Positions 4,321 through 60,955 of a stretch of DNA of 64,000 bases are shown piece by piece (positions within the stretch are counted from its first letter, which is position 1; every line of letters starts with the position of its first letter). A program made the translations under genes and the position numbers. Under the pieces are notes generated by a model that ran no database searches, had not been told where the DNA came from, and saw only the letters and a program-made list of their open reading frames with translations. Origin of the DNA: Clostridia bacterium (GTDB lineage: Bacteria > Bacillota > Clostridia > Christensenellales > Borkfalkiaceae); contig JAFTPU010000013.1 of the NCBI GenBank assembly GCA_017463105.1, positions 25,769 through 89,768 on the forward strand, written 5' to 3'.

Positions 4321-6327
4321 ATGAGGCTTTCTTTGCTCCGTTCGATCGGGGAAAAACGCGAAAAGGATTTTAATAAGCTGGGGATCTACGAGGCGGAGGA
4401 CCTCGTAAGGTTTTATCCGCGCGCGTATCTCGATCTTACCGAAAGAGCGTCGCTGAGAAACGCCTATCACAACGACGTCGTGCTTGTCGCTTGCGAGGTC
4501 ACGCGGCTTGCGCCCGTCAATTTCGCTTCGCCGCGAAAAATGGTGCGGGCGTTCTGTTCGCAGGACGGTTTGCCTTTTTCCGCGATTTGGTTCAATCAAC
4601 CGTACGTGGCGCAAAAGCTCAAGCCGGGCGAGTATCTTTTTTACGGTCGTATCCAAAACAAATTCGGACAGATCTCGATCGTCAATCCCACGTTCGAGCC
4701 GCTCGATAAAAACTACCGTTTGAAGGGCATCGTGCCCGTGTATCCGCTCAAAGGCAAGCTCAGCCAAAAGATCGTCCGCGACGCCGTAAAAGAGGCGTTG
4801 CAGCGGGTAAATTTAAACGGCGTGATCCCGTATCCGATTATAAAAAAATACGATTTGCCGCCTTTGGATAAATCGTATTTTCAAGTGCATAATCCCTCCG
4901 ATCACAACGTGCTCGAAAAAGCGTCCGAGCGTATCGCGCTCGAGGAATATTTTATCCTCATTTCCGCTTTCAAGCTCATCAAGGGCGGCAAAGAGGAGGT
5001 CCGTATCAAACGCTACGGCGTAACGGCGGGCGAGGTGAAGGAATTTGCCTCCCGCTTTGGTTTCGAACTCACCGACGGACAGAAAAACGCCGTCAACGAG
5101 ATATTCGAAAGCCTCCACGCGCCCACGCGTATGAACAGACTCGTGCAGGGCGACGTAGGCAGCGGTAAAACGGCGGTCGCGCTGTGCGGTATTTTTATGG
5201 CGGTAAAGAGCGGGTATACGGCGGCGTATCTTTCGCCTACCGAAGTGCTTGCCGCACAGAATTACAACGTACTGAAAAAACACTTTCCCGACTACGAGGT
5301 GGGATACCTTGCGGGCGGTATGACCGCCAAGGAAAAGCGGGAACTGAAAGTCCGTCTGAAAAACGGGGAGATCGATATCCTTTGCGGTACGCACGCCATT
5401 TTGCAAGGCGACGTGGAAATTCCCCGCCTGTCCTTTATCGTATGCGACGAACAGCACCGCTTCGGCGTAGCGCAAAGAAACGCGCTCGCGGAAAAAGGCG
5501 TGGGGGCGGATATGCTCGTTATGAGCGCGACGCCTATTCCGCGCACCCTTTCGCTGATTTTTTACGGCGATCTGGAAGTCACCTCCATTCACGACAAGCC
5601 CAAGCAAAGGCAGGAGGTCACGACGTCGATCATTCCCGAAAGCAAGTACGACGATATGCTCGAGTACGTGAGAAAAGAAACGCAAGCGGGTAAACAGGCG
5701 TATTTCGTATGCGCGAAGATCGACGACGATGAGGAAGGCTCGATCATCAGCGTGAACGAGCTTTTCGACGAGCTGAAAAACCGTTTGCCGACCGTGCGCT
5801 TCGGCTTGTTGCACGGCAGAATGAAGGACAAAGAGAAAGCGGAAGTGATGACGGCGTTCAAAAACCGCGAGTACGATTGCTTGGTTTCGACGACCGTGAT
5901 CGAGGTGGGGGTCGACGTGCCCAACGCCACCATTATGATCGTCTACAATGCCGAACGGTTCGGGCTTTCCCAGCTTCACCAGCTTCGCGGTCGGGTAGGG
6001 CGCGGCGCGGATAAGAGCTACTGTTTTCTGCTTATGGGTGCGGACGGCGAAGTCGCGCGCGAGCGCTTGACGACGCTTAAAAACAATACGGACGGGTTCA
6101 AGATCGCGGAAAAGGACCTCGAAATGCGGGGCGGGGGAGACTTCTTCGGCACGCGGCAATCGGGAAAATTGCTCGGCGATATCAAAAATCTGCGCTATCC
6201 CACGCAGGTGGTTTTTGCCGCGAAGAAGCTTTCGGACGAAACGTTCGAGGGGAGATTCGACGACGAGGAGCTGCGCGCGGCGGCGTTGAAGAAGTACGAC
6301 AGCCTGAAAGACGTGGTGCTGAATTGA
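4321..6327 (+). CDS. recG: ATP-dependent DNA helicase RecG
   Basis: 668 aa. It has Walker A GDVGSGKT, the DEQH box (VCDEQHRFG) and helicase motif VI QLRGRVGRG. The N-terminal wedge-like region is typical of RecG. Confidence 0.95.
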   Translation: MRLSLLRSIGEKREKDFNKLGIYEAEDLVRFYPRAYLDLTERASLRNAYHNDVVLVACEVTRLAPVNFASPRKMVRAFCSQDGLPFSAIWFNQPYVAQKLKPGEYLFYGRIQNKFGQISIVNPTFEPLDKNYRLKGIVPVYPLKGKLSQKIVRDAVKEALQRVNLNGVIPYPIIKKYDLPPLDKSYFQVHNPSDHNVLEKASERIALEEYFILISAFKLIKGGKEEVRIKRYGVTAGEVKEFASRFGFELTDGQKNAVNEIFESLHAPTRMNRLVQGDVGSGKTAVALCGIFMAVKSGYTAAYLSPTEVLAAQNYNVLKKHFPDYEVGYLAGGMTAKEKRELKVRLKNGEIDILCGTHAILQGDVEIPRLSFIVCDEQHRFGVAQRNALAEKGVGADMLVMSATPIPRTLSLIFYGDLEVTSIHDKPKQRQEVTTSIIPESKYDDMLEYVRKETQAGKQAYFVCAKIDDDEEGSIISVNELFDELKNRLPTVRFGLLHGRMKDKEKAEVMTAFKNREYDCLVSTTVIEVGVDVPNATIMIVYNAERFGLSQLHQLRGRVGRGADKSYCFLLMGADGEVARERLTTLKNNTDGFKIAEKDLEMRGGGDFFGTRQSGKLLGDIKNLRYPTQVVFAAKKLSDETFEGRFDDEELRAAALKKYDSLKDVVLN

Positions 6328-10415: not shown

Positions 10416-11300
10416 ATGAAGCTTACGAAAATTTTCGAAAAGAACGAATATTCCCTGTCCTTCGAGGTGTTTCCGCCCAAGACGGACGACGTGTACGACA
10501 GCGTAAAGACGGCGACGGAGGAGATCGCGCGGCTCAAGCCCTCGTTTATGAGCGTGACCTACGGCGCGGGCGGCGGTACGAGCAAGTATACGCTGAAGAT
10601 CGCGGAAGAGATCGCGCGCGAGCACGACGTTCCTTCGCTTGCCCATCTCACCTGCGTGTCGTCGACGAAAGAGACGGTGCGGGCGCGTATCGAGGATTTC
10701 AAAAACGCGGGCGTCGAAAACGTCATGGCGCTCCGCGGGGATATCCCCCAAAGCATGCAGGAGGAGAACAGAGCGAATTGGGACTACCGTCACGCGGTCG
10801 ATCTGATCGCCGAGCTGAAAGCAAGCGGCGCGGATTTTTGTATCGGCGGGGCGTGCTATCCCGAGGTGCATCCCGAGAGCGGCTCGCAGAAAGAGGATAT
10901 CCGCCATTTAAAAGAAAAGGTCGAGGCGGGTTGCGAGTTTTTGACCACGCAGATGTTTTTCGATAATAATTTATTATACAATTTCCTGTATAAAATTCGC
11001 GAGGCGGGGATCACCGTGCCCGTGATCGCGGGGATCATGCCGATTACGAACGCGAAGCAGGTGGAGCGCGCGATCAAGCTTTCGGGCTCGTTCATGCCCC
11101 AAAGGTTCAAGAGTCTCGTGGATAAATTCGGCGGCGACCCTGCGGCGATGAAACAGGCAGGCATTGCGTATGCGACCGATCAGATCATCGATCTGTATGC
11201 GAACGGAGTCAATCACGTGCACGTGTATTCGATGAACAAGCCCGACGTGGCGGCGAAGATACAGAGCAATCTCTCGGATATTTTGGGCAAAAATGCTTGA
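10416..11300 (+). CDS. metF: 5,10-methylenetetrahydrofolate reductase
   Basis: 294 aa. The MTHFR pattern runs throughout (SFEVFPPKT, SVTYGAGG, HLTC, ALRGD, and the CYPE..HPES region). Confidence 0.9.
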   Translation: MKLTKIFEKNEYSLSFEVFPPKTDDVYDSVKTATEEIARLKPSFMSVTYGAGGGTSKYTLKIAEEIAREHDVPSLAHLTCVSSTKETVRARIEDFKNAGVENVMALRGDIPQSMQEENRANWDYRHAVDLIAELKASGADFCIGGACYPEVHPESGSQKEDIRHLKEKVEAGCEFLTTQMFFDNNLLYNFLYKIREAGITVPVIAGIMPITNAKQVERAIKLSGSFMPQRFKSLVDKFGGDPAAMKQAGIAYATDQIIDLYANGVNHVHVYSMNKPDVAAKIQSNLSDILGKNA

Positions 11301-11970
11301 CGGCGTGTTTATCGAAAATTACGCCGCGCCGCCCGTGGACGAGCGGGAGATACTCCGATATGCGGGGAACAAGGCGGACGCGGACGAGAGCTTGAAAAAG
11401 CTCCTCGACGAGTGCTTGCGCGAGTGCTTGCCCGTGCTTTCCTATCGCGTGTGTTACGCCGTGGGAAAGGCGCGGGAGCTCGAAGAGACTTTCGGCGGGG
11501 AATATAAGGGCACGCTGTTGACGAGGCGGCTTTGCGGCGCGGAATACGCGGCGGCGTTCGCGGCGACGGTGGGTTTGGGTATCGATCGGCTGATCCTGCG
11601 GTATACGGAGGTCGCGCCGACGAAAGCGCTGTTATTGCAGGCGATCGGCGCGGAGCGGATCGAGGCGCTTTGCGACGCGTTTTGCAAGGATATGCAAACG
11701 GAATGGGCGACGAAAGGCTTTAAGGTCGGCGCGCGGTTCAGCGCGGGCTACGGCGATTTTCCGCTGACGGCGCAAAGGAAGATATTCGCTTTGCTTTCGC
11801 CCGAGCGCAGGATAGGTCTGACGCTGAACGGTTCGCTTCTTATGACCCCGACGAAGTCGGTGACGGCGATCGTACCGATCGGCGGGAACGCAACGCTAAG
11901 CGGCGGTTGCGCGGAATGTGAGCTGAAAGAATGTGAAATGAGGGGCGGCGTAAGAGGTCAAGGAACTTAG
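11293..11970 (+). CDS. stand-alone methionine synthase activation (AdoMet-binding/reactivation) domain protein
   Basis: 225 aa matching the MetH activation-domain pattern (RFSAGYGDFPL..Q..IF.LL...IGL.L..S.LM.P.KS). It overlaps the metF stop by 8 nt. Its last codons and stop lie inside repeat E1. Confidence 0.75.
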   Translation: MLDGVFIENYAAPPVDEREILRYAGNKADADESLKKLLDECLRECLPVLSYRVCYAVGKARELEETFGGEYKGTLLTRRLCGAEYAAAFAATVGLGIDRLILRYTEVAPTKALLLQAIGAERIEALCDAFCKDMQTEWATKGFKVGARFSAGYGDFPLTAQRKIFALLSPERRIGLTLNGSLLMTPTKSVTAIVPIGGNATLSGGCAECELKECEMRGGVRGQGT

Positions 11971-12211
11971 TTCCTTGCGGATTGTAAAGGCAGAGCCTTT
12001 ACGCCTCGACGGCAGTCGCCGTCCGTAGGGCGGAAGAATGCCCTCTCGAAAGCAAAACGAAGTTTTGCATTACTATGCCGAAAGGCGTAAAGCGCAAGCC
12101 CGCTTGCGTTGATCGCTTACGCGGTAGTGGCAAATCAAAGATTTGCTATTTGGGGTTGATTATGCGAGGGCTCCGCCCTCAACCTCCCGCAAGGGACAAT
12201 GTCCCTTGACC
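11956..12211. repeat. multi-hairpin intergenic element E1 (head-to-head dimer, 11 consecutive hairpins)
   Basis: The ends are inverted: GGTCAAGGAAC-TTA-GTTCCTTGCGG ... CCGCAAGGGAC-AAT-GTCCCTTGACC. The right arm read on the reverse strand aligns hairpin-by-hairpin with E2 and E3. Confidence 0.85.
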
Positions 12212-12236
12212 CTTAATGAAAAAGAGATAAAGTGTT

Positions 12237-14660
12237 ATGAACGTAAGAGAATTTTTACAAAATAATATCGTCGTTTTGGACGGCGGGACGGGCACGTTGT
12301 TGCAGGCGGCGGGATTGCCGCTCGGGGAGCTTCCCGAACGTTGGAATATTACGCACGCGGACGTCGTTGCCGATATCCACCGCGCGTATTTCGACGCGGG
12401 CAGTAACGTCGTTTGTACGAACACCTTTGGCGCGAACGCGCTGAAATTCGACGGGGCGGAGCTGGAAAAAATCGTTGCTTCCGCCGTTGCGAACGCGCGT
12501 AAGGGCGCGGAGCTTTCTAAAGGCAAACAGCCGAAATTCGTCGCGCTCGATATCGGACCGTCGGGAAAACTGTTGAAGCCGTACGGCGATTTCGCGTTCG
12601 AGGAAGCCGTCGCGCTGTTTGCGAAAACGGTAAAGCTCGGCGTGAAATACGGGGTCGATCTCGTCTTTATCGAGACGATGGGCGACAGCTATGAAACGAA
12701 AGCGGCGCTTCTTGCTGTGAAAGAAAATTCCGAATTGCCCGTGTTCGTGTCCAATGCGTACGGCGGCGACGGAAAGCTGATGACGGGCGCGACGCCCGCC
12801 GCGATGGTCGCCATGCTCGAAAGCATGGGCGCAGACGCGATCGGGGCGAATTGCTCGCTCGGTCCCAAACAGCTCGCGCCTGTGGCGGAGGAGCTTCTCG
12901 CAAAAGCCTCCGTACCCGTTCTGATCAAGCCCAACGCGGGGTTGCCGCAGACGGACGGCGCGCGCACCTACTACGATGTGGACGAAAAAGAATTTGCGGC
13001 GGAGCTCGTTGCGCTTGTGAAAAAAGGCGTGCGCGTAATCGGCGGCTGCTGCGGAACGACGCCCGCATATATCGGGGAAACGGCGAAGGTGCTTGCGGGC
13101 GTTTCGCCTTTGCCTCTGACGGAAAAGAATATCGCTTGCGTGTCCTCGTATACGCACGCGGTGGAGTTCGATAAGCCGCTTCTTATCGGCGAGCGTATCA
13201 ACCCGACGGGCAAGAAACGCTTCAAACAGGCGCTTTTGGACGGCGAGACCGATTACGCGTTGAACGAGGCACTGTCCCAACGGGATAAGGGCGCGCAGCT
13301 CCTCGACGTAAACGTGGGATTGCCGGGGATAGACGAAAGGAAAACGCTTACCGAATATATCGAAAAGATCCAAGCGGTCGTCGATCTGCCTTTACAGATC
13401 GACACCTCCGATCCCGTCGCGCTCGAAAGCGCGCTCCGCGCGTATAACGGCAAACCGCTCGTCAATTCGGTGAACGGGAAACGAGAAAGCATGGACGCCG
13501 TGTTCCCGCTTGTGAAAAAATACGGCGGAGCGGTGGTGGCGCTGACGCTCGACGAAAACGGGATACCCGAAACTTGGGAGGGGCGCGTGGCGATCGCCGA
13601 AAAGATCGTAAACGAAGCGGCGAGGTACGGGATAAAAAAGAAGGACGTTTTCGTGGATACGCTGACGATGTCGGTGGCGACGGACAAAAACGCCGCCCGC
13701 ACGACCCTTTCCGCCTTGCGCTTCGTTTCACGTGAAATGGGTCTGCACAGCGTACTCGGCGTTTCCAACGTATCGTTCGGGCTTCCCGCCCGCGAAACGG
13801 TGAACGCGTCCTTTTTCGCGCTCGCGCTGGAAAACGGATTGTCGGCGGCGATCCTGAACCCCGCTTCCGTGGAAATGCAAAAGACCTATCGCGCGTTTCT
13901 CGCGCTCAACGGCACGGACGAAAACTGCGGGGAGTATATCCGTTTCGCCACGGAAATTTTACCCGCCGCAACGCCCGCGACCGTTTCCGCGGCTCCGCCC
14001 GCACCGAGCGGAACGGAGGGCGGCTCGCCCTTGCAGACGGCGATCTCGGAGGGCTTGAAGGACCGTGCGACGGCGCTTTGCAAGGAGCTGTTGCAAGAAG
14101 TTTCCCCTTTGGAGATCGTAAACGGCGAGATCGTGCCCGCGCTGGATACCGTCGGTAAGGCGTACGAGGAAAAACGGGCGTATCTGCCCCGACTTTTAAT
14201 GAGCGCGGAAGCGGCGAAATGCGCATTCGAGGTCATTAAAAACCATATGCTTTCCACGGGCGAAACGCAGACGAAAAAATGCAAATTCGTGATCGCCACC
14301 GTGAAAGGGGATATCCACGATATCGGGAAAAATATCGTCAGAACGTTGCTCGAAAATTACGGCTTCGACGTCGTCGACCTCGGACGGGACGTTCCGCCCG
14401 AAACGGTGCTCGAAGCGGTGCGAACGCACGGCGCGCCCCTCGTCGGGCTGTCCGCGTTGATGACGACCACCGTGCCCTCGATGGAGGAAACGATCGGATT
14501 ATTGAAAGCGCACGCGCCCGCGTGCAAGATCGTCGTGGGCGGCGCGGTGCTCAATAGAGAGTACGCGGAAAAGATCGGCGCGGACGCATACGCGAAAGAC
14601 GGCATGGAAACGGTACGTTACGCCGAAAAGATATACGCGGATTTATGCAAAAATAAATGA
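12237..14660 (+). CDS. metH: cobalamin-dependent methionine synthase (Hcy-binding, pterin-binding, cap and B12-binding modules; no activation domain)
   Basis: 807 aa. The N-terminal Hcy S-methyltransferase domain contains GGCCGTTP. The B12-binding motifs are GDIHDIGKNIV (DxHxxG), SALMTTT and VGGAVL. Confidence 0.92.
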   Translation: MNVREFLQNNIVVLDGGTGTLLQAAGLPLGELPERWNITHADVVADIHRAYFDAGSNVVCTNTFGANALKFDGAELEKIVASAVANARKGAELSKGKQPKFVALDIGPSGKLLKPYGDFAFEEAVALFAKTVKLGVKYGVDLVFIETMGDSYETKAALLAVKENSELPVFVSNAYGGDGKLMTGATPAAMVAMLESMGADAIGANCSLGPKQLAPVAEELLAKASVPVLIKPNAGLPQTDGARTYYDVDEKEFAAELVALVKKGVRVIGGCCGTTPAYIGETAKVLAGVSPLPLTEKNIACVSSYTHAVEFDKPLLIGERINPTGKKRFKQALLDGETDYALNEALSQRDKGAQLLDVNVGLPGIDERKTLTEYIEKIQAVVDLPLQIDTSDPVALESALRAYNGKPLVNSVNGKRESMDAVFPLVKKYGGAVVALTLDENGIPETWEGRVAIAEKIVNEAARYGIKKKDVFVDTLTMSVATDKNAARTTLSALRFVSREMGLHSVLGVSNVSFGLPARETVNASFFALALENGLSAAILNPASVEMQKTYRAFLALNGTDENCGEYIRFATEILPAATPATVSAAPPAPSGTEGGSPLQTAISEGLKDRATALCKELLQEVSPLEIVNGEIVPALDTVGKAYEEKRAYLPRLLMSAEAAKCAFEVIKNHMLSTGETQTKKCKFVIATVKGDIHDIGKNIVRTLLENYGFDVVDLGRDVPPETVLEAVRTHGAPLVGLSALMTTTVPSMEETIGLLKAHAPACKIVVGGAVLNREYAEKIGADAYAKDGMETVRYAEKIYADLCKNK

Positions 14661-14796
14661 TTTATGCAAGTTTTATACAATTATGCACGATATTCGCAAA
14701 ATATACGGAAAATATTTAAAATAAATGCATAAAAATGTTTGACATGCGGAGAAACGGGGCGTATAATAAAGGTATAAGATGAATATTTAAACACGC
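14641..14796 (+). promoter_or_regulatory. argG promoter with putative ArgR (ARG-box-like) operators
   Basis: TTGACA (14739-14744), a 17-nt spacer, then TATAAT (14762-14767). AT-rich TTATGCA/AATGCATAAAAAT boxes repeat four times upstream and over the -35. ATGAATATTTAAACAC (14779-14794) sits just after the -10 and resembles the TGAATAAAAATTCA consensus. Confidence 0.45.
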
Positions 14797-16054: not shown

Positions 16055-16076
16055 GTAAAACGCTTTAACGGTAAAG

Positions 16077-16247
16077 GGTCAAGGGACGTTGTCCCTTGCG
16101 GGAGGTTGAGGACGGAATCCTCGCATAATCAGCCCCAAGATAAGCAAAGCGGAGCTTTGCGCCCTTACCGCGAAGCGGTCAATGCGATTTATCGCAAGAA
16201 AAAAATAAAAACGGAGAAACCTTGCCTACTGCTATGCGGTAGGCAAA
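16077..16247 (+). repeat. multi-hairpin intergenic element E2
   Basis: It contains six hairpins: 16080-16098, 16108-16122, 16144-16160, 16167-16179, 16183-16196 and 16222-16246. The first 55 nt are nearly identical to the reverse strand of E1. Confidence 0.85.
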
Positions 16248-16259
16248 AGGTATTTAATA

Positions 16260-19816: not shown

Positions 19817-19823
19817 TATAAGA

Positions 19824-19945
19824 AGTCAAGAAACTTAGTTTCTTGTCAGGGGTGCGGGGGCGGAAGCCCCTGCGAAAACAGCCCAAGATAAGCAACCGTA
19901 GGTTGCGCCTATACCGCCATAGGCGGTTAGTGCAACGCAGTTGCA
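19824..19945 (+). repeat. multi-hairpin intergenic element E3 (most diverged copy)
   Basis: It contains five hairpins: 19827-19845, 19857-19870, 19892-19906, 19913-19927 and 19931-19945. Their order and the linker CAGCCCAAGATAAGCAA match E2. Confidence 0.8.
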
Positions 19946-33250: not shown

Positions 33251-33341
33251 TGGCGGAGAGTGTGAGATTCGAACTCACGTGGGGTTTGATCCCCAAACGG
33301 TTTTCAAGACCGCCTCGTTATGACCGCTTCGATAACTCTCC
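33251..33341 (-). tRNA. tRNA-Ser (anticodon UGA), intact, class II long variable arm
   Basis: I folded it by hand. Acceptor GGAGAGT/ACTCTCC, D stem TCG/CGA, anticodon stem GCGGT/ACCGT with loop CTTGAAA. Variable arm GGGG-ATCAAA-CCCC, T arm GTGAG-TTCGAAT-CTCAC, and an encoded CCA. Confidence 0.9.
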
Positions 33342-33735: not shown

Positions 33736-33886
33736 CCAAAAGAAAATTGTCAATGATTTTTGCGCTAAAACAAAAATTCCCCTCCCCGAAAAATAGGGGA
33801 GGGAACGCGCCGTTTACTCGATATCCAATTCGGGCGGGACGTCGATCTCGTCGCGGATACGCGAAGCCACGATCTCGCTCGAGCCG
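33736..33886. repeat. left copy of a direct repeat: mosaic of the RHH-gene 3' end/terminator (= 47541-47656) and a 42-bp SPFH-gene segment (= 48211-48252)
   Basis: I aligned it by eye. 33736-33852 equals 47541-47656 except for one extra A in an A-run. 33845-33886 equals 48211-48252 with 1 mismatch. The two segments overlap in the 8-nt microhomology ATCTCGTC. Confidence 0.85.
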
Positions 33887-47540: not shown

Positions 47541-47656
47541 CCAAAAGAAAATTGTCAATGATTTTTGCGCTAAAACAAAAATTCCCCTCCCCGAAAATAG
47601 GGGAGGGAACGCGCCGTTTACTCGATATCCAATTCGGGCGGGACGTCGATCTCGTC
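47541..47656. repeat. right copy of the 116/117-bp direct repeat bracketing the accessory island
   Basis: It is identical to 33736-33852 apart from one A. It covers the RHH gene 3' end and its terminator (47582-47609). Confidence 0.9.
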
Positions 47657-60013: not shown

Positions 60014-60955
60014 ATGGAACATTTTTTGGAATGGCTGGAACACGCAGTGGTAGACACGCTTCCCATGTTGCCGTGGATATTCGTCATGTACGTGATCATT
60101 CAGCTCCTCGAAAACAAAACGGCGCTTAAAAACGCCGATCGCTTCGGCGGCAAGCTCGGTCCCGTGATCGGTTCGGCGACGGGGCTTATCCCCCAATGCG
60201 GATTTTCCGTAATGGCGGCGAAGTTTTACGAAAAGAAATATATTACGCTCGGCACGCTTTTGGCGATCTTTTTCTCCACCAGCGACGAGGCGTTCATACT
60301 TCTGCTTTCTTCGGGCGAGGGCGCGCTTTGGGTGTTGCCCACGCTGATCGTGAAGGTCGGTCTGGGTACCGCCGTGGGCTACGGCGTCGATCTTGCGTTA
60401 AAGCTGCTCGGGCGCAAACAGGTGCGGCTCGAAATGCCCAAAGAGGAAGAGGGCGAACCTGCCACTACGCACGACATATTCCTGCAACGGTACCTCGAGG
60501 AGAAAGAGGTAGACGTCGTTTGCGCGTGCGGTAAGGCGCACGGCACGGACAGCGCATGGAAAAAATACCTTTTGTATCCGCTTTTGCACACCTTGCAAGT
60601 GGCGGCGTTTATCTTCCTCGTCAATTTCGCCTTGACGGCGATCATTCATTCGGTGGGCGAGGATACGTTCTCTGCGTTCATGCACCGCAACCGCTTTTTA
60701 CAGCCGTTCATCACCTGCGCCATCGGACTTATCCCCAATTGCGCGTCGAGCGTGGTGATCACGGAAACGTTTTTAAGCGGCGGGATCACGTTCGGCTCGT
60801 TCGTGGCGGGACTTTGCGCCAACGCGGGCATGGGCTTCGTCGTGCTTTTGAAAAACGTGCGGATGTGGAAACGCAATCTCGCGTTGATCGGGGTCTCGTA
60901 CGGACTTTCCGTTATCGTGGGGCTTTTATTCAACCTGTTTCCGCTGACGGTGTAA
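60014..60955 (+). CDS. polytopic membrane protein, ArsP_2 / putative 10-TM metal-exporter-like family
   Basis: 313 aa and multi-TM, with an IPQCGFSV motif and a second half containing IPNCASSV. I assigned the family from memory of that motif only. Confidence 0.5.
   Translation: MEHFLEWLEHAVVDTLPMLPWIFVMYVIIQLLENKTALKNADRFGGKLGPVIGSATGLIPQCGFSVMAAKFYEKKYITLGTLLAIFFSTSDEAFILLLSSGEGALWVLPTLIVKVGLGTAVGYGVDLALKLLGRKQVRLEMPKEEEGEPATTHDIFLQRYLEEKEVDVVCACGKAHGTDSAWKKYLLYPLLHTLQVAAFIFLVNFALTAIIHSVGEDTFSAFMHRNRFLQPFITCAIGLIPNCASSVVITETFLSGGITFGSFVAGLCANAGMGFVVLLKNVRMWKRNLALIGVSYGLSVIVGLLFNLFPLTV

Follow-up and report, generated by a model that had tools for sequence, protein, structure and literature searches.

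A hairpin array between a MetH activation-domain gene and metH in a Clostridia bacterium as a probable inverted dimer of interspersed repeat units

Repetitive extragenic palindromic (REP) sequences lie near the stop codons of upstream genes, form inverted pairs that are often heterodimers, carry G.T pairs in their stems and are believed to be transcribed together with neighbouring genes and to influence how stable the mRNA is (PMC3733652). In Streptococcus pneumoniae and S. suis, BOX elements are built from boxA, boxB repeats and boxC, are predicted to form independent stem-loops when transcribed and can modify the ends of genes (PMC3049150). The REP survey cited above gives no text matches for Clostridi or Firmicutes, the host group of the repeats described here. 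We analysed a stretch of 64,000 nucleotides from Clostridia bacterium (assembly GCA_017463105.1, contig JAFTPU010000013.1, positions 25,769 to 89,768; hereafter the window), in which a hairpin array, E1, lies between a gene for a stand-alone MetH activation-domain protein and metH, the genes of this region being ordered trmO (on the - strand), metF, activation-domain gene, E1, metH, a consensus promoter at 14739-14767, argG, a second element (E2), argH, argC, argJ, a third (E3), argB and argD. We consider it probable that E1 consists of two units from a family of non-autonomous interspersed repeats, inverted with respect to each other, joined at a shared palindromic hairpin and inserted at an operon junction. 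The family is of a familiar kind, that of small structured interspersed repeats, and is apparently undescribed and a member of no named family; strings of its head sequence matched only unrelated primers in the literature searched and led to no paper on the repeats, and the literature naming Scatosoma, the lineage in which many copies occur, consists by title and abstract of taxonomic or microbiome surveys.

Structure of the E1 hairpin array

E1 and the genes on either side of it comprise the following features, hairpins being given as 5' arm, loop and 3' arm.

11293-11970, + strand: upstream gene, stand-alone MetH activation-domain protein of 225 amino acids (Pfam PF02965)
11951-12216, no single strand: E1, complete inverted dimer with its heads outward, between the activation-domain gene and metH
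11951-12090, + strand: left arm, a long-arm (B-type) unit of six hairpins (covariance model R1, 47-64 bits at 11950-12095)
11959-11977, + strand: left-arm head hairpin h1, CAAGGAAC-TTA-GTTCCTTG
11968-11970, + strand: TAG stop codon that h1 provides for the upstream gene
11983-12003, + strand: left-arm hairpin 2, TGTAAAGGC-AGA-GCCTTTACG, conserved in B-type copies
12007-12018, + strand: left-arm hairpin 3, CGAC-GGCA-GTCG, in the register supported by the family
12019-12033, + strand: left-arm hairpin 4, CCGTCC-GTA-GGGCGG, with one T.G pair, in the register supported by the family
12052-12068, + strand: left-arm h3, GCAAAAC-GAA-GTTTTGC
12074-12089, + strand: left-arm h4, TATGCC-GAAA-GGCGTA, with one T.G pair, C-G at that position in the related locus L117
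12091-12110, no single strand: central palindromic hairpin, region GCGCAAGC-CCGC-TTGCGT, the meeting point of the arms
12111-12216, - strand: right arm, a short-arm (A-type, canonical) unit, 92% identical to E2 over 65 nt
12112-12125, - strand: right-arm h4, ATCGC-TTAC-GCGGT as read on +, with a T.G pair on + that is C.A on - and a full pair in L117
12130-12146, - strand: right-arm h3, GCAAATC-AAA-GATTTGC as read on +
12154-12184, - strand: right-arm module 2, outer stem GGTTGA/TCAACC around an inner hairpin at 12166-12180 (GAGGGC-TCC-GCCCTC)
12190-12208, - strand: right-arm head hairpin h1, CAAGGGAC-AAT-GTCCCTTG
12237-14660, + strand: metH, cobalamin-dependent methionine synthase without an activation domain (PF02574, PF00809, PF02607, PF02310)

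The original prediction, made from the letters of the DNA, had counted eleven hairpins here, and all eleven fold when tested singly, with stems of 5-9 bp and loops of 3-6 nt; some of the coordinates given for them were shifted by 1-3 nt (hairpin 5 lies at 12052-12068, not 12054-12070). For hairpins 3 and 4 the predicted register (12009-12024 and 12029-12046) is thermodynamically possible but is fully paired in just 4 of 24 distinct related copies, whereas the register listed above (12007-12018 followed by 12019-12033) is kept in 23 of the 24 and leaves the total at eleven, its second, variable hairpin showing six different stem sequences among these copies. The ends of E1 are inverted repeats, as had been claimed (11956-11980 against 12187-12211, 25 nt, 84% complementary), and the 301 nt from 11940 to 12240 fold at -130.4 kcal/mol on the + strand and -121.5 kcal/mol on the - strand, with a folding z of -7.11 on each and none of 100 dinucleotide shuffles folding as well. 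A hairpin scan found an unbroken run of seven hairpins at 11959-12110, compared to a longest run of three to four in 20 block shuffles, and the head hairpin pattern matched six times in the window (three sites, both strands) where 0.03 matches were expected. The assignment of E1 as a complete dimer is based on the inverted ends, the folding z, two opposite matches to the covariance model and the presence of the same dimer at the orthologous site of L117.

The right arm is a reverse-oriented canonical copy, as had been proposed (model R1, 100.7 bits at 12105-12217 on the - strand), and helices 2 and 3 of the model, which form its module 2, covary. The left arm had been taken for a more diverged copy of the same unit and belongs instead to a separate long-arm subfamily, which is well conserved and has two additional hairpins, with near-identical copies of its modules at many loci. 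That the unit occurs in both orientations, with arms joined at a central palindromic hairpin, is borne out by 13 inverted dimers of 195-364 bp, of which about 10, by our reading, are long-arm/short-arm heterodimers, the usual form; the centre, CGCAAGC-nnn-GCTTGCG, reads alike on both strands and is found in the middle of other dimers too. Whether such a dimer is called head-to-head depends on convention, the conserved head hairpins being outward and the variable ends meeting in the middle. Rfam 15 gave no match at gathering score anywhere in the window, with chance-level matches alone at E <= 10, and among three related loci it gave none at gathering score save a tRNA, with noise alone at permissive E-values.

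The repeat family and the insertion at metH

The sequence of E1 is repeated. With covariance model R1, built from 39 copies, exactly four units are identified in the window: two make up E1 and each of the following elements is one more, the head hairpin recurring at 16080-16098 and again at 19827-19845, there with a compensated stem.

16071-16185, + strand: E2, single A-type unit between argG and argH (model R1, 103.7 bits)
19818-19933, + strand: E3, single unit between argJ and argB (model R1, 82 bits)

A borderline match to the model at 60502-60606 was rejected as ordinary coding-like sequence. Scanning one genome per species with the head pattern gave at least 116 loci, with matches on both strands, mostly in metagenome-assembled genomes (MAGs) of Candidatus Scatosoma or of unnamed gut Clostridia, and about 25 of the loci among the matches listed come from a single assembly, JAZNDR01; related loci carry L numbers here, the host genomes being represented as 8-kb pieces. 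Among the head-pattern loci listed, model R1 identifies 142 units at E <= 1e-6, in 662 kb from 85 sources. The head pattern had no match among viral contigs, nor E1 among plasmids.

A unit is 110-145 nt long, has a GC content of 0.5-0.6 and is an ordered array of 4-7 different hairpins. It opens with the head, (T)TAG/TAAG-rr-GTCAAGrrAC-nnn-GTyyCTTG-CGG, preceded in essentially all copies by GGTC or AGTC (a tag RGTC), and continues with a second module, which has short forms (one bulged hairpin) and a long form (three hairpins), and then with a spacer CCCAAG.TAA followed by h3 (GCAAnnn-loop-nnnTTGC), h4 and sometimes h5. Three to six different short GC-rich hairpins thus follow the head in fixed order, mostly with 3-nt loops closed by C-G, and only the head hairpin is conserved in sequence across units. 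Single units are the majority and have no terminal inverted repeats, unlike the dimers with their 25-nt ones.

Two further sequences recur within units. Many units end ...GCGGTCAA (16172-16180 in the window, and units in L014, L028, L033, L037 and L112), so that GTCAA occurs both at the head (GTCAAG) and at the tail, a likeness which may be chance or a boundary signal. A 118-nt hairpin-rich sequence, which could be a secondary insertion or a third variant of the module, lies inside module 2 of four units, one of which is the right arm of L117's orthologue of E1; no copy was found away from family units, and it had no Rfam match in a scan that left L117 out.

L117 3880-3996: 118-nt nested sequence
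L114 6068-6185: 118-nt nested sequence
L108 6583-6700: 118-nt nested sequence
L001 5123-5236: 118-nt nested sequence

E1 is an insertion and not a metH leader, because at its site the spacer is 1 nt long in relatives that share the gene order of the window (metF, activation-domain gene, metH, argG, argH), in keeping with the original prediction of an insertion. These relatives are L198 and L199, whose upstream proteins are 68% identical to that of the window, and L201 (57%). Nineteen of 20 more distant metagenome loci that were examined gave a spacer value, from -22 to +102 nt, and the head hairpin is present in none of 80 metagenome loci found with the upstream protein (at most 51% identity); the metagenome relatives served as empty sites and are too distant to fix the exact boundaries of the element. 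E1 lies directly upstream of metH, is highly structured and is 91% conserved in one relative, as might be expected of a unique cis-regulatory leader such as a riboswitch or an attenuator, but the same units are found in the arg operon, in three consecutive operon spacers of L038 (between putative pyrF, pyrK and pyrD, as read from translations) and in many other spacers of unrelated operons, and with the site empty in three relatives, the head hairpin missing from the 80 metagenome loci and no Rfam family at gathering score in the window, such a leader is extremely improbable. At the same junction L200, whose protein is 62% identical, has a 284-nt spacer of different sequence (4589-4872) without the head hairpin, and the junction between the activation-domain gene and metH seems prone to gaining extra DNA.

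In L117 (upstream protein 68% identical) the same heterodimer occupies the corresponding codon position, and its right arm carries an additional nested insertion of 118 nt. E1 and the L117 dimer are 90.7% identical, compared to 74-83% for the flanking coding DNA, and all three T.G wobble pairs of the window copy are full pairs in L117. At the argG-argH site the window has a short-arm unit, L198 a long-arm unit and L033 another short variant, and L201 is empty; such replacement of modules at orthologous sites points to recombination or conversion between copies, which could explain the high identity of E1 and L117 too. The same comparison places the hairpin GCGATTTATCGC, which follows E2, in native sequence outside the element, and a further hairpin just upstream of argH (16222-16250, CCTTGCCTACTGC-TAT-GCGGTAGGCAAAAGG) is a native argH-proximal structure, because it is kept in L198 and L201 regardless of whether a repeat unit is present.

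The element has also remodelled the C-terminus of the upstream protein, as had been proposed. The protein, of which an identical copy is on record from a Clostridia MAG, ends ...CEMRGGVRGQGT*, about six residues later than its homologues (which end 3-6 residues beyond the last Cys), with an element-encoded tail and stop; element sequence begins within the GTA at 11950-11952 and runs to the end of the gene. The TAG stop had been placed in the loop of the first hairpin, and this is so for its T and A, which are the last two bases of the loop (11967-11969), but its G opens the 3' arm. Among 90 pattern-defined units, 49 have a long upstream open reading frame (ORF) ending nearby, and in 12 of these 49 the element supplies the stop, in its head or h1 loop, the stop falling within the head loop in three (the window, L091 and L099). 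Removal of E1 between its flanking TA dinucleotides would restore a frame that reads ..GTA ATG AAA AAG AGA TAA (...GGVMKKR*), the restored TAA falling at 12228-12230 and being separated by 6 nt from the metH ATG, and a ribosome-site-like stretch, AAGAGA, lying inside the old gene end.

12216-12230, + strand: putative trace of the upstream gene's original 3' end, as read from the sequence

A duplicated TA target was considered as a general rule and rejected, since it fits E1 and L117 while several other dimers are without TA on at least one flank. Also at this end of E1, the outward end of the right head gives TTGACC, which with TAAAGT forms a weak promoter-like match (9/12) at 12206-12233; it is too near the metH ATG to serve metH, and heads generally carry such an outward-reading -35-like hexamer.

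The course of events that we propose is that the family rose in copy number on the chromosomes of gut Clostridia like Candidatus Scatosoma, landing mainly just behind stop codons, and that a dimer entered the junction of two formerly abutting and probably translationally coupled genes, where it would have replaced the last few codons of the activation-domain gene, given it a TAG as its new stop codon and lengthened the spacer, once a few nt, to 266 nt. E1 would be co-transcribed within a metF-X-metH operon, because its + strand is without a terminator-like (U-tract) site, and the array of RNA hairpins may act there as a passive exonuclease barrier and as a translation uncoupler, as for REP, BOX and ERIC, and recombination or gene conversion among units presumably keeps the copies alike.

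Stem maintenance, placement and strand

The stems of the family hairpins have been kept through compensatory changes. The head stem occurs in three variants (GGGAC/GTCCC, GGAAC/GTTCC and GAAAC/GTTTC) with 87 of 90 copies perfectly paired, and h3 in about a dozen variants, almost all perfect, these counts of h1 and h3 variants being independent of the model. In the alignment of the 142 units, which was fitted to model R1, 90.8% of cells are paired compared to 79.6% in shuffles and 33-55% in slid controls, and both sides have changed at 22 of the 23 modelled pairs, a number that none of 500 shuffles reach. Of the distinct hairpins, 61% have 3-nt loops and 94% of those loops are closed by C-G, while 16 of 51 distinct tetraloops are of GNRA type.

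Correction of quasi-palindromes by template switching is an established mutational mechanism. Stems that are nearly always perfect around minimal 3-nt loops, modules swapped between copies at orthologous sites and an identity between species above that of coding DNA could all be produced by such correction at the DNA level together with gene conversion, with no selection on a folded molecule, but this would leave the strand asymmetry, the orientation bias and the fixed order and spacing of the hairpins unexplained, and we think it improbable.

Placement and orientation of the units are biased. Of the 142 units, 70 lie between co-directional genes, 22 between convergent and 6 between divergent genes, with stop codons 0-25 nt from the head in most cases, and single units between co-directional genes are sense in 37 cases and antisense in 8 (binomial p ~1e-5). 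They reside in housekeeping operons, met and arg in the window and the putative pyr genes in L038. A replication-linked cause of this bias received no support, as the eight antisense units do not lie beside minority-strand or low-skew genes, judged by coding-strand GC skew and strand majority, which are a weak proxy. Read antisense, E2 and E3 have U-rich runs following h3 and h1 that are scored as terminator-like, and such runs could explain selection against antisense copies inside operons.

The original prediction had taken two T.G pairs, which are indeed present in the stems at 12074-12089 and 12112-12125, as a hint that RNA is the selected form. The hint is not borne out across the family. 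Helix 1 has 17 G.T pairs compared to 4 A.C pairs on the element strand, and this strand folds better than its complement in 92 units versus 49, but neither effect flips in units antisense to genes (G.T to A.C 12:6, with 12 units versus 9 folding better on the element strand). Some strand-specific single-stranded form matters, be it RNA or single-stranded DNA.

One reading of these data, to which we give tentative credence, is that the arrays are RNA elements selected by the host, which punctuate operons and set the stability, processing or coupling of their cistrons, mobility being just the means of delivery. The sense excess and its missing tie to replication at the antisense exceptions, the location behind stop codons and rarity between divergent genes, the compensatory changes, the orthologous dimer more conserved than its flanking coding DNA, the possible cost of antisense terminators and the GNRA-type tetraloops would all suit it. 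The G.T excess and the asymmetry of folding, however, go with the element's own strand and do not reverse in antisense units, C-G-closed 3-nt loops suit DNA palindromes at least equally, dimers always put one arm antisense and orthologous sites are empty in close relatives with no visible compensation.

Two other features of the window may be recorded here. The metH-argG spacer (14640-14770) holds a perfect TTGACA-17-TATAAT promoter match at 14739-14767, upstream of which lie repeated ATGCA-rich, AT-rich boxes resembling arginine repressor operators, in a layout common to L117. Further along, a tRNA-Ser(tga) gene (33251-33341 on the - strand) is followed by three direct copies (33300, 33491 and 33672) of a shared core of about 37 nt, the first of which overlaps the tRNA gene, and a near-perfect direct repeat of about 117 nt (33736-33852 and 47541-47656) brackets 13.8 kb of lower-GC DNA (0.43-0.51) encoding a rhamnosidase, ROK and SIS proteins, an AraC regulator, an EamA transporter and an ABC permease. 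This segment looks like a putative island inserted beside tRNA-Ser, and no integrase was found among the nine ORFs scanned.

Mobilisation and relation to known systems

A RAYT-like Y1 transposase (RAYT, REP-associated tyrosine transposase) had been suggested as the enzyme that could mobilise these palindromic units, and a tblastn search of element-rich loci totalling about 1 Mb, whose RAYT and IS608 TnpA queries had limited sensitivity, found no RAYT. One IS200-type transposase gene was found (PF01797, E = 1.4e-40), at L087 6090-6888, at a contig end of genome JAZNDR01. Regions between inverted heads 1-2.3 kb apart contain ordinary genes and no transposase, the 8-kb pieces of host genomes show no cognate insertion sequence with matching ends, and the flanks of the Polyangiaceae and other copies described below gave no transposase-like ORF in end fragments, with no search against a library of families. 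Our guess is that the mobilising enzyme is strand-specific and of the RAYT/IS200 kind.

Several observations weigh against E1 as a dimer of a non-autonomous mobile repeat. No autonomous partner was identified in the 1 Mb of loci, and the IS200-type gene of L087 was rejected as the mobiliser, its end hairpins being unrelated to the family. The flanks of the 13 dimers show no consistent direct repeat that could be a target-site duplication, and single units have no terminal inverted repeats, so that the classical mechanism of MITEs (miniature inverted-repeat transposable elements) does not fit them. No recent movement was seen, the insertion of E1 predating the split from the L117 lineage, and an old shared insertion that is more conserved than nearby coding DNA could mean that a function is selected and not that a selfish element persists.

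The units could also be REPIN-like and moved as single-stranded DNA by an HUH tyrosine transposase that recognises the head hairpin and its 5' flank, hairpins being kept for recognition. Such movement would account for a single conserved hairpin with a conserved 5' flank, as in tagged REPs, for the recurrent inverted dimers, for the target duplication not being seen, for the asymmetry of the element strand in helix 1 and in folding, and for the dominance of C-G-closed triloops; the element-rich genome JAZNDR01 has the PF01797 gene, and REP families without a dedicated transposase are on record (PMC3733652). The sole Y1 transposase found has unrelated end hairpins, no RAYT was found in the 1 Mb of loci searched, at limited sensitivity, no transposase gene flanked by head hairpins was seen, the tag is RGTC and not GTAG or CGTC, and the orientation of single units does not track the proxy for replication direction, and on balance we regard this as rather unlikely.

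The head, together with a second GC-rich hairpin, is also found outside Candidatus Scatosoma (model scores of 34-49 bits, compared to 15-20 bits for the head hairpin alone), in Lachnospiraceae, Defluviitaleaceae, Candidatus Limiplasma, other Clostridia and a Magnetospirillum MAG, and a Polyangiaceae MAG has the pair at several contigs, at some of them at contig ends. In L078, L067 and L109 the unit is just about 60 nt long and ends ...CCCCAAGGTCTT.

L078 7120-7210: head and GC-rich hairpin
L067 5525-5630: head and GC-rich hairpin
L109 1600-1691: head and GC-rich hairpin
L015 4502-4597: head and GC-rich hairpin
L034 7229-7356: head and GC-rich hairpin
L088, L020, L089, L073, L074 and L004: further loci with head and GC-rich hairpin

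A speculative proposal, which we would not expect to prove correct, is that the two-hairpin head (GGGTCAAGGGAC-nnn-GTCCCTTG-CGGGG and the GC-rich hairpin) is the recognition module of a widespread uncharacterised mobile system, which in the Scatosoma lineage was extended to ordered arrays and co-opted as orientation-dependent punctuation of operon mRNA, kept uniform by conversion and selection; were this so, an old insertion would be more conserved than neighbouring genes because conversion and selection keep the arrays uniform.

Whichever process is at work, the family is present in many spacers within the operons of a gut lineage that is common but uncultured, where it breaks assemblies, lengthens or truncates annotated proteins (supplying the stop codon for about a quarter of scorable upstream genes) and can be taken in error for regulatory leaders or genes of small RNAs. 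At metH the insertion split two formerly abutting genes and may have altered their co-expression. The 142 units, with compensated stems, two orientations and both filled and empty orthologous sites, are natural replicates that could be used to test selection on RNA against selection on DNA.

Like REPs, BIMEs and REPINs, the family consists of many short extragenic palindromes, mostly between co-directional or convergent genes near the upstream stop, and it shares with REPs and BIMEs the inverted dimers, often of unlike arms, and the G.T pairs in stems. A REP is a single palindrome of 20-40 bp, a size which the head hairpin alone fits (about 25-30 nt), whereas at least four hairpins in fixed order make up the unit of this family, with a length of 110-145 nt, and its tag is RGTC where REPs have GTAG or CGTC (TGTC/CCTC). 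REPINs are shorter than the dimers of this family, and no RAYT flanked by family units was found in the loci searched. The head resembles the CGTC-tagged REPs (dRS3 of Neisseria, RPE-4 and RPE-6 of Rickettsia) in its design; they have in common with it a tag ending in -GTC, an 8-bp stem starting A-A/T-T, a short loop, a short unpaired tail, the lack (for the family, in the loci searched) of a dedicated transposase and an occasional overlap with gene ends (PMC3733652). They differ from it in the first base of the tag (C, T or CC, against G or A in the family), in loop and tail (4-5 nt and CCA, against 3 nt and GCGG) and in that the head of the family is always followed by further family-specific hairpins.

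BOX is likewise a composite, modular Gram-positive repeat with fixed modules at its ends and a variable number of internal ones, but it has boxA/boxC terminal inverted repeats around tandem copies of the same boxB, whereas the internal modules of the present family differ from one another in a fixed order and its single units have no inverted ends; the two are set apart here by description and not by direct sequence comparison. MITEs such as Correia/NEMIS, ERIC, RUP, bcr1 and Nezha are also non-coding, highly base-paired and intergenic, sometimes lie within operons and can supply stop codons or alter gene ends, and the E1-type dimers with their inverted ends resemble them, but the family shows no target-site duplication, is not AT-rich, exists mostly as single copies without terminal inverted repeats and has no related insertion sequence that we found. 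What goes beyond the ordinary in this family is its ordered multi-hairpin unit, a conservation above that of neighbouring genes, a strong sense bias and a head module shared with distant phyla.

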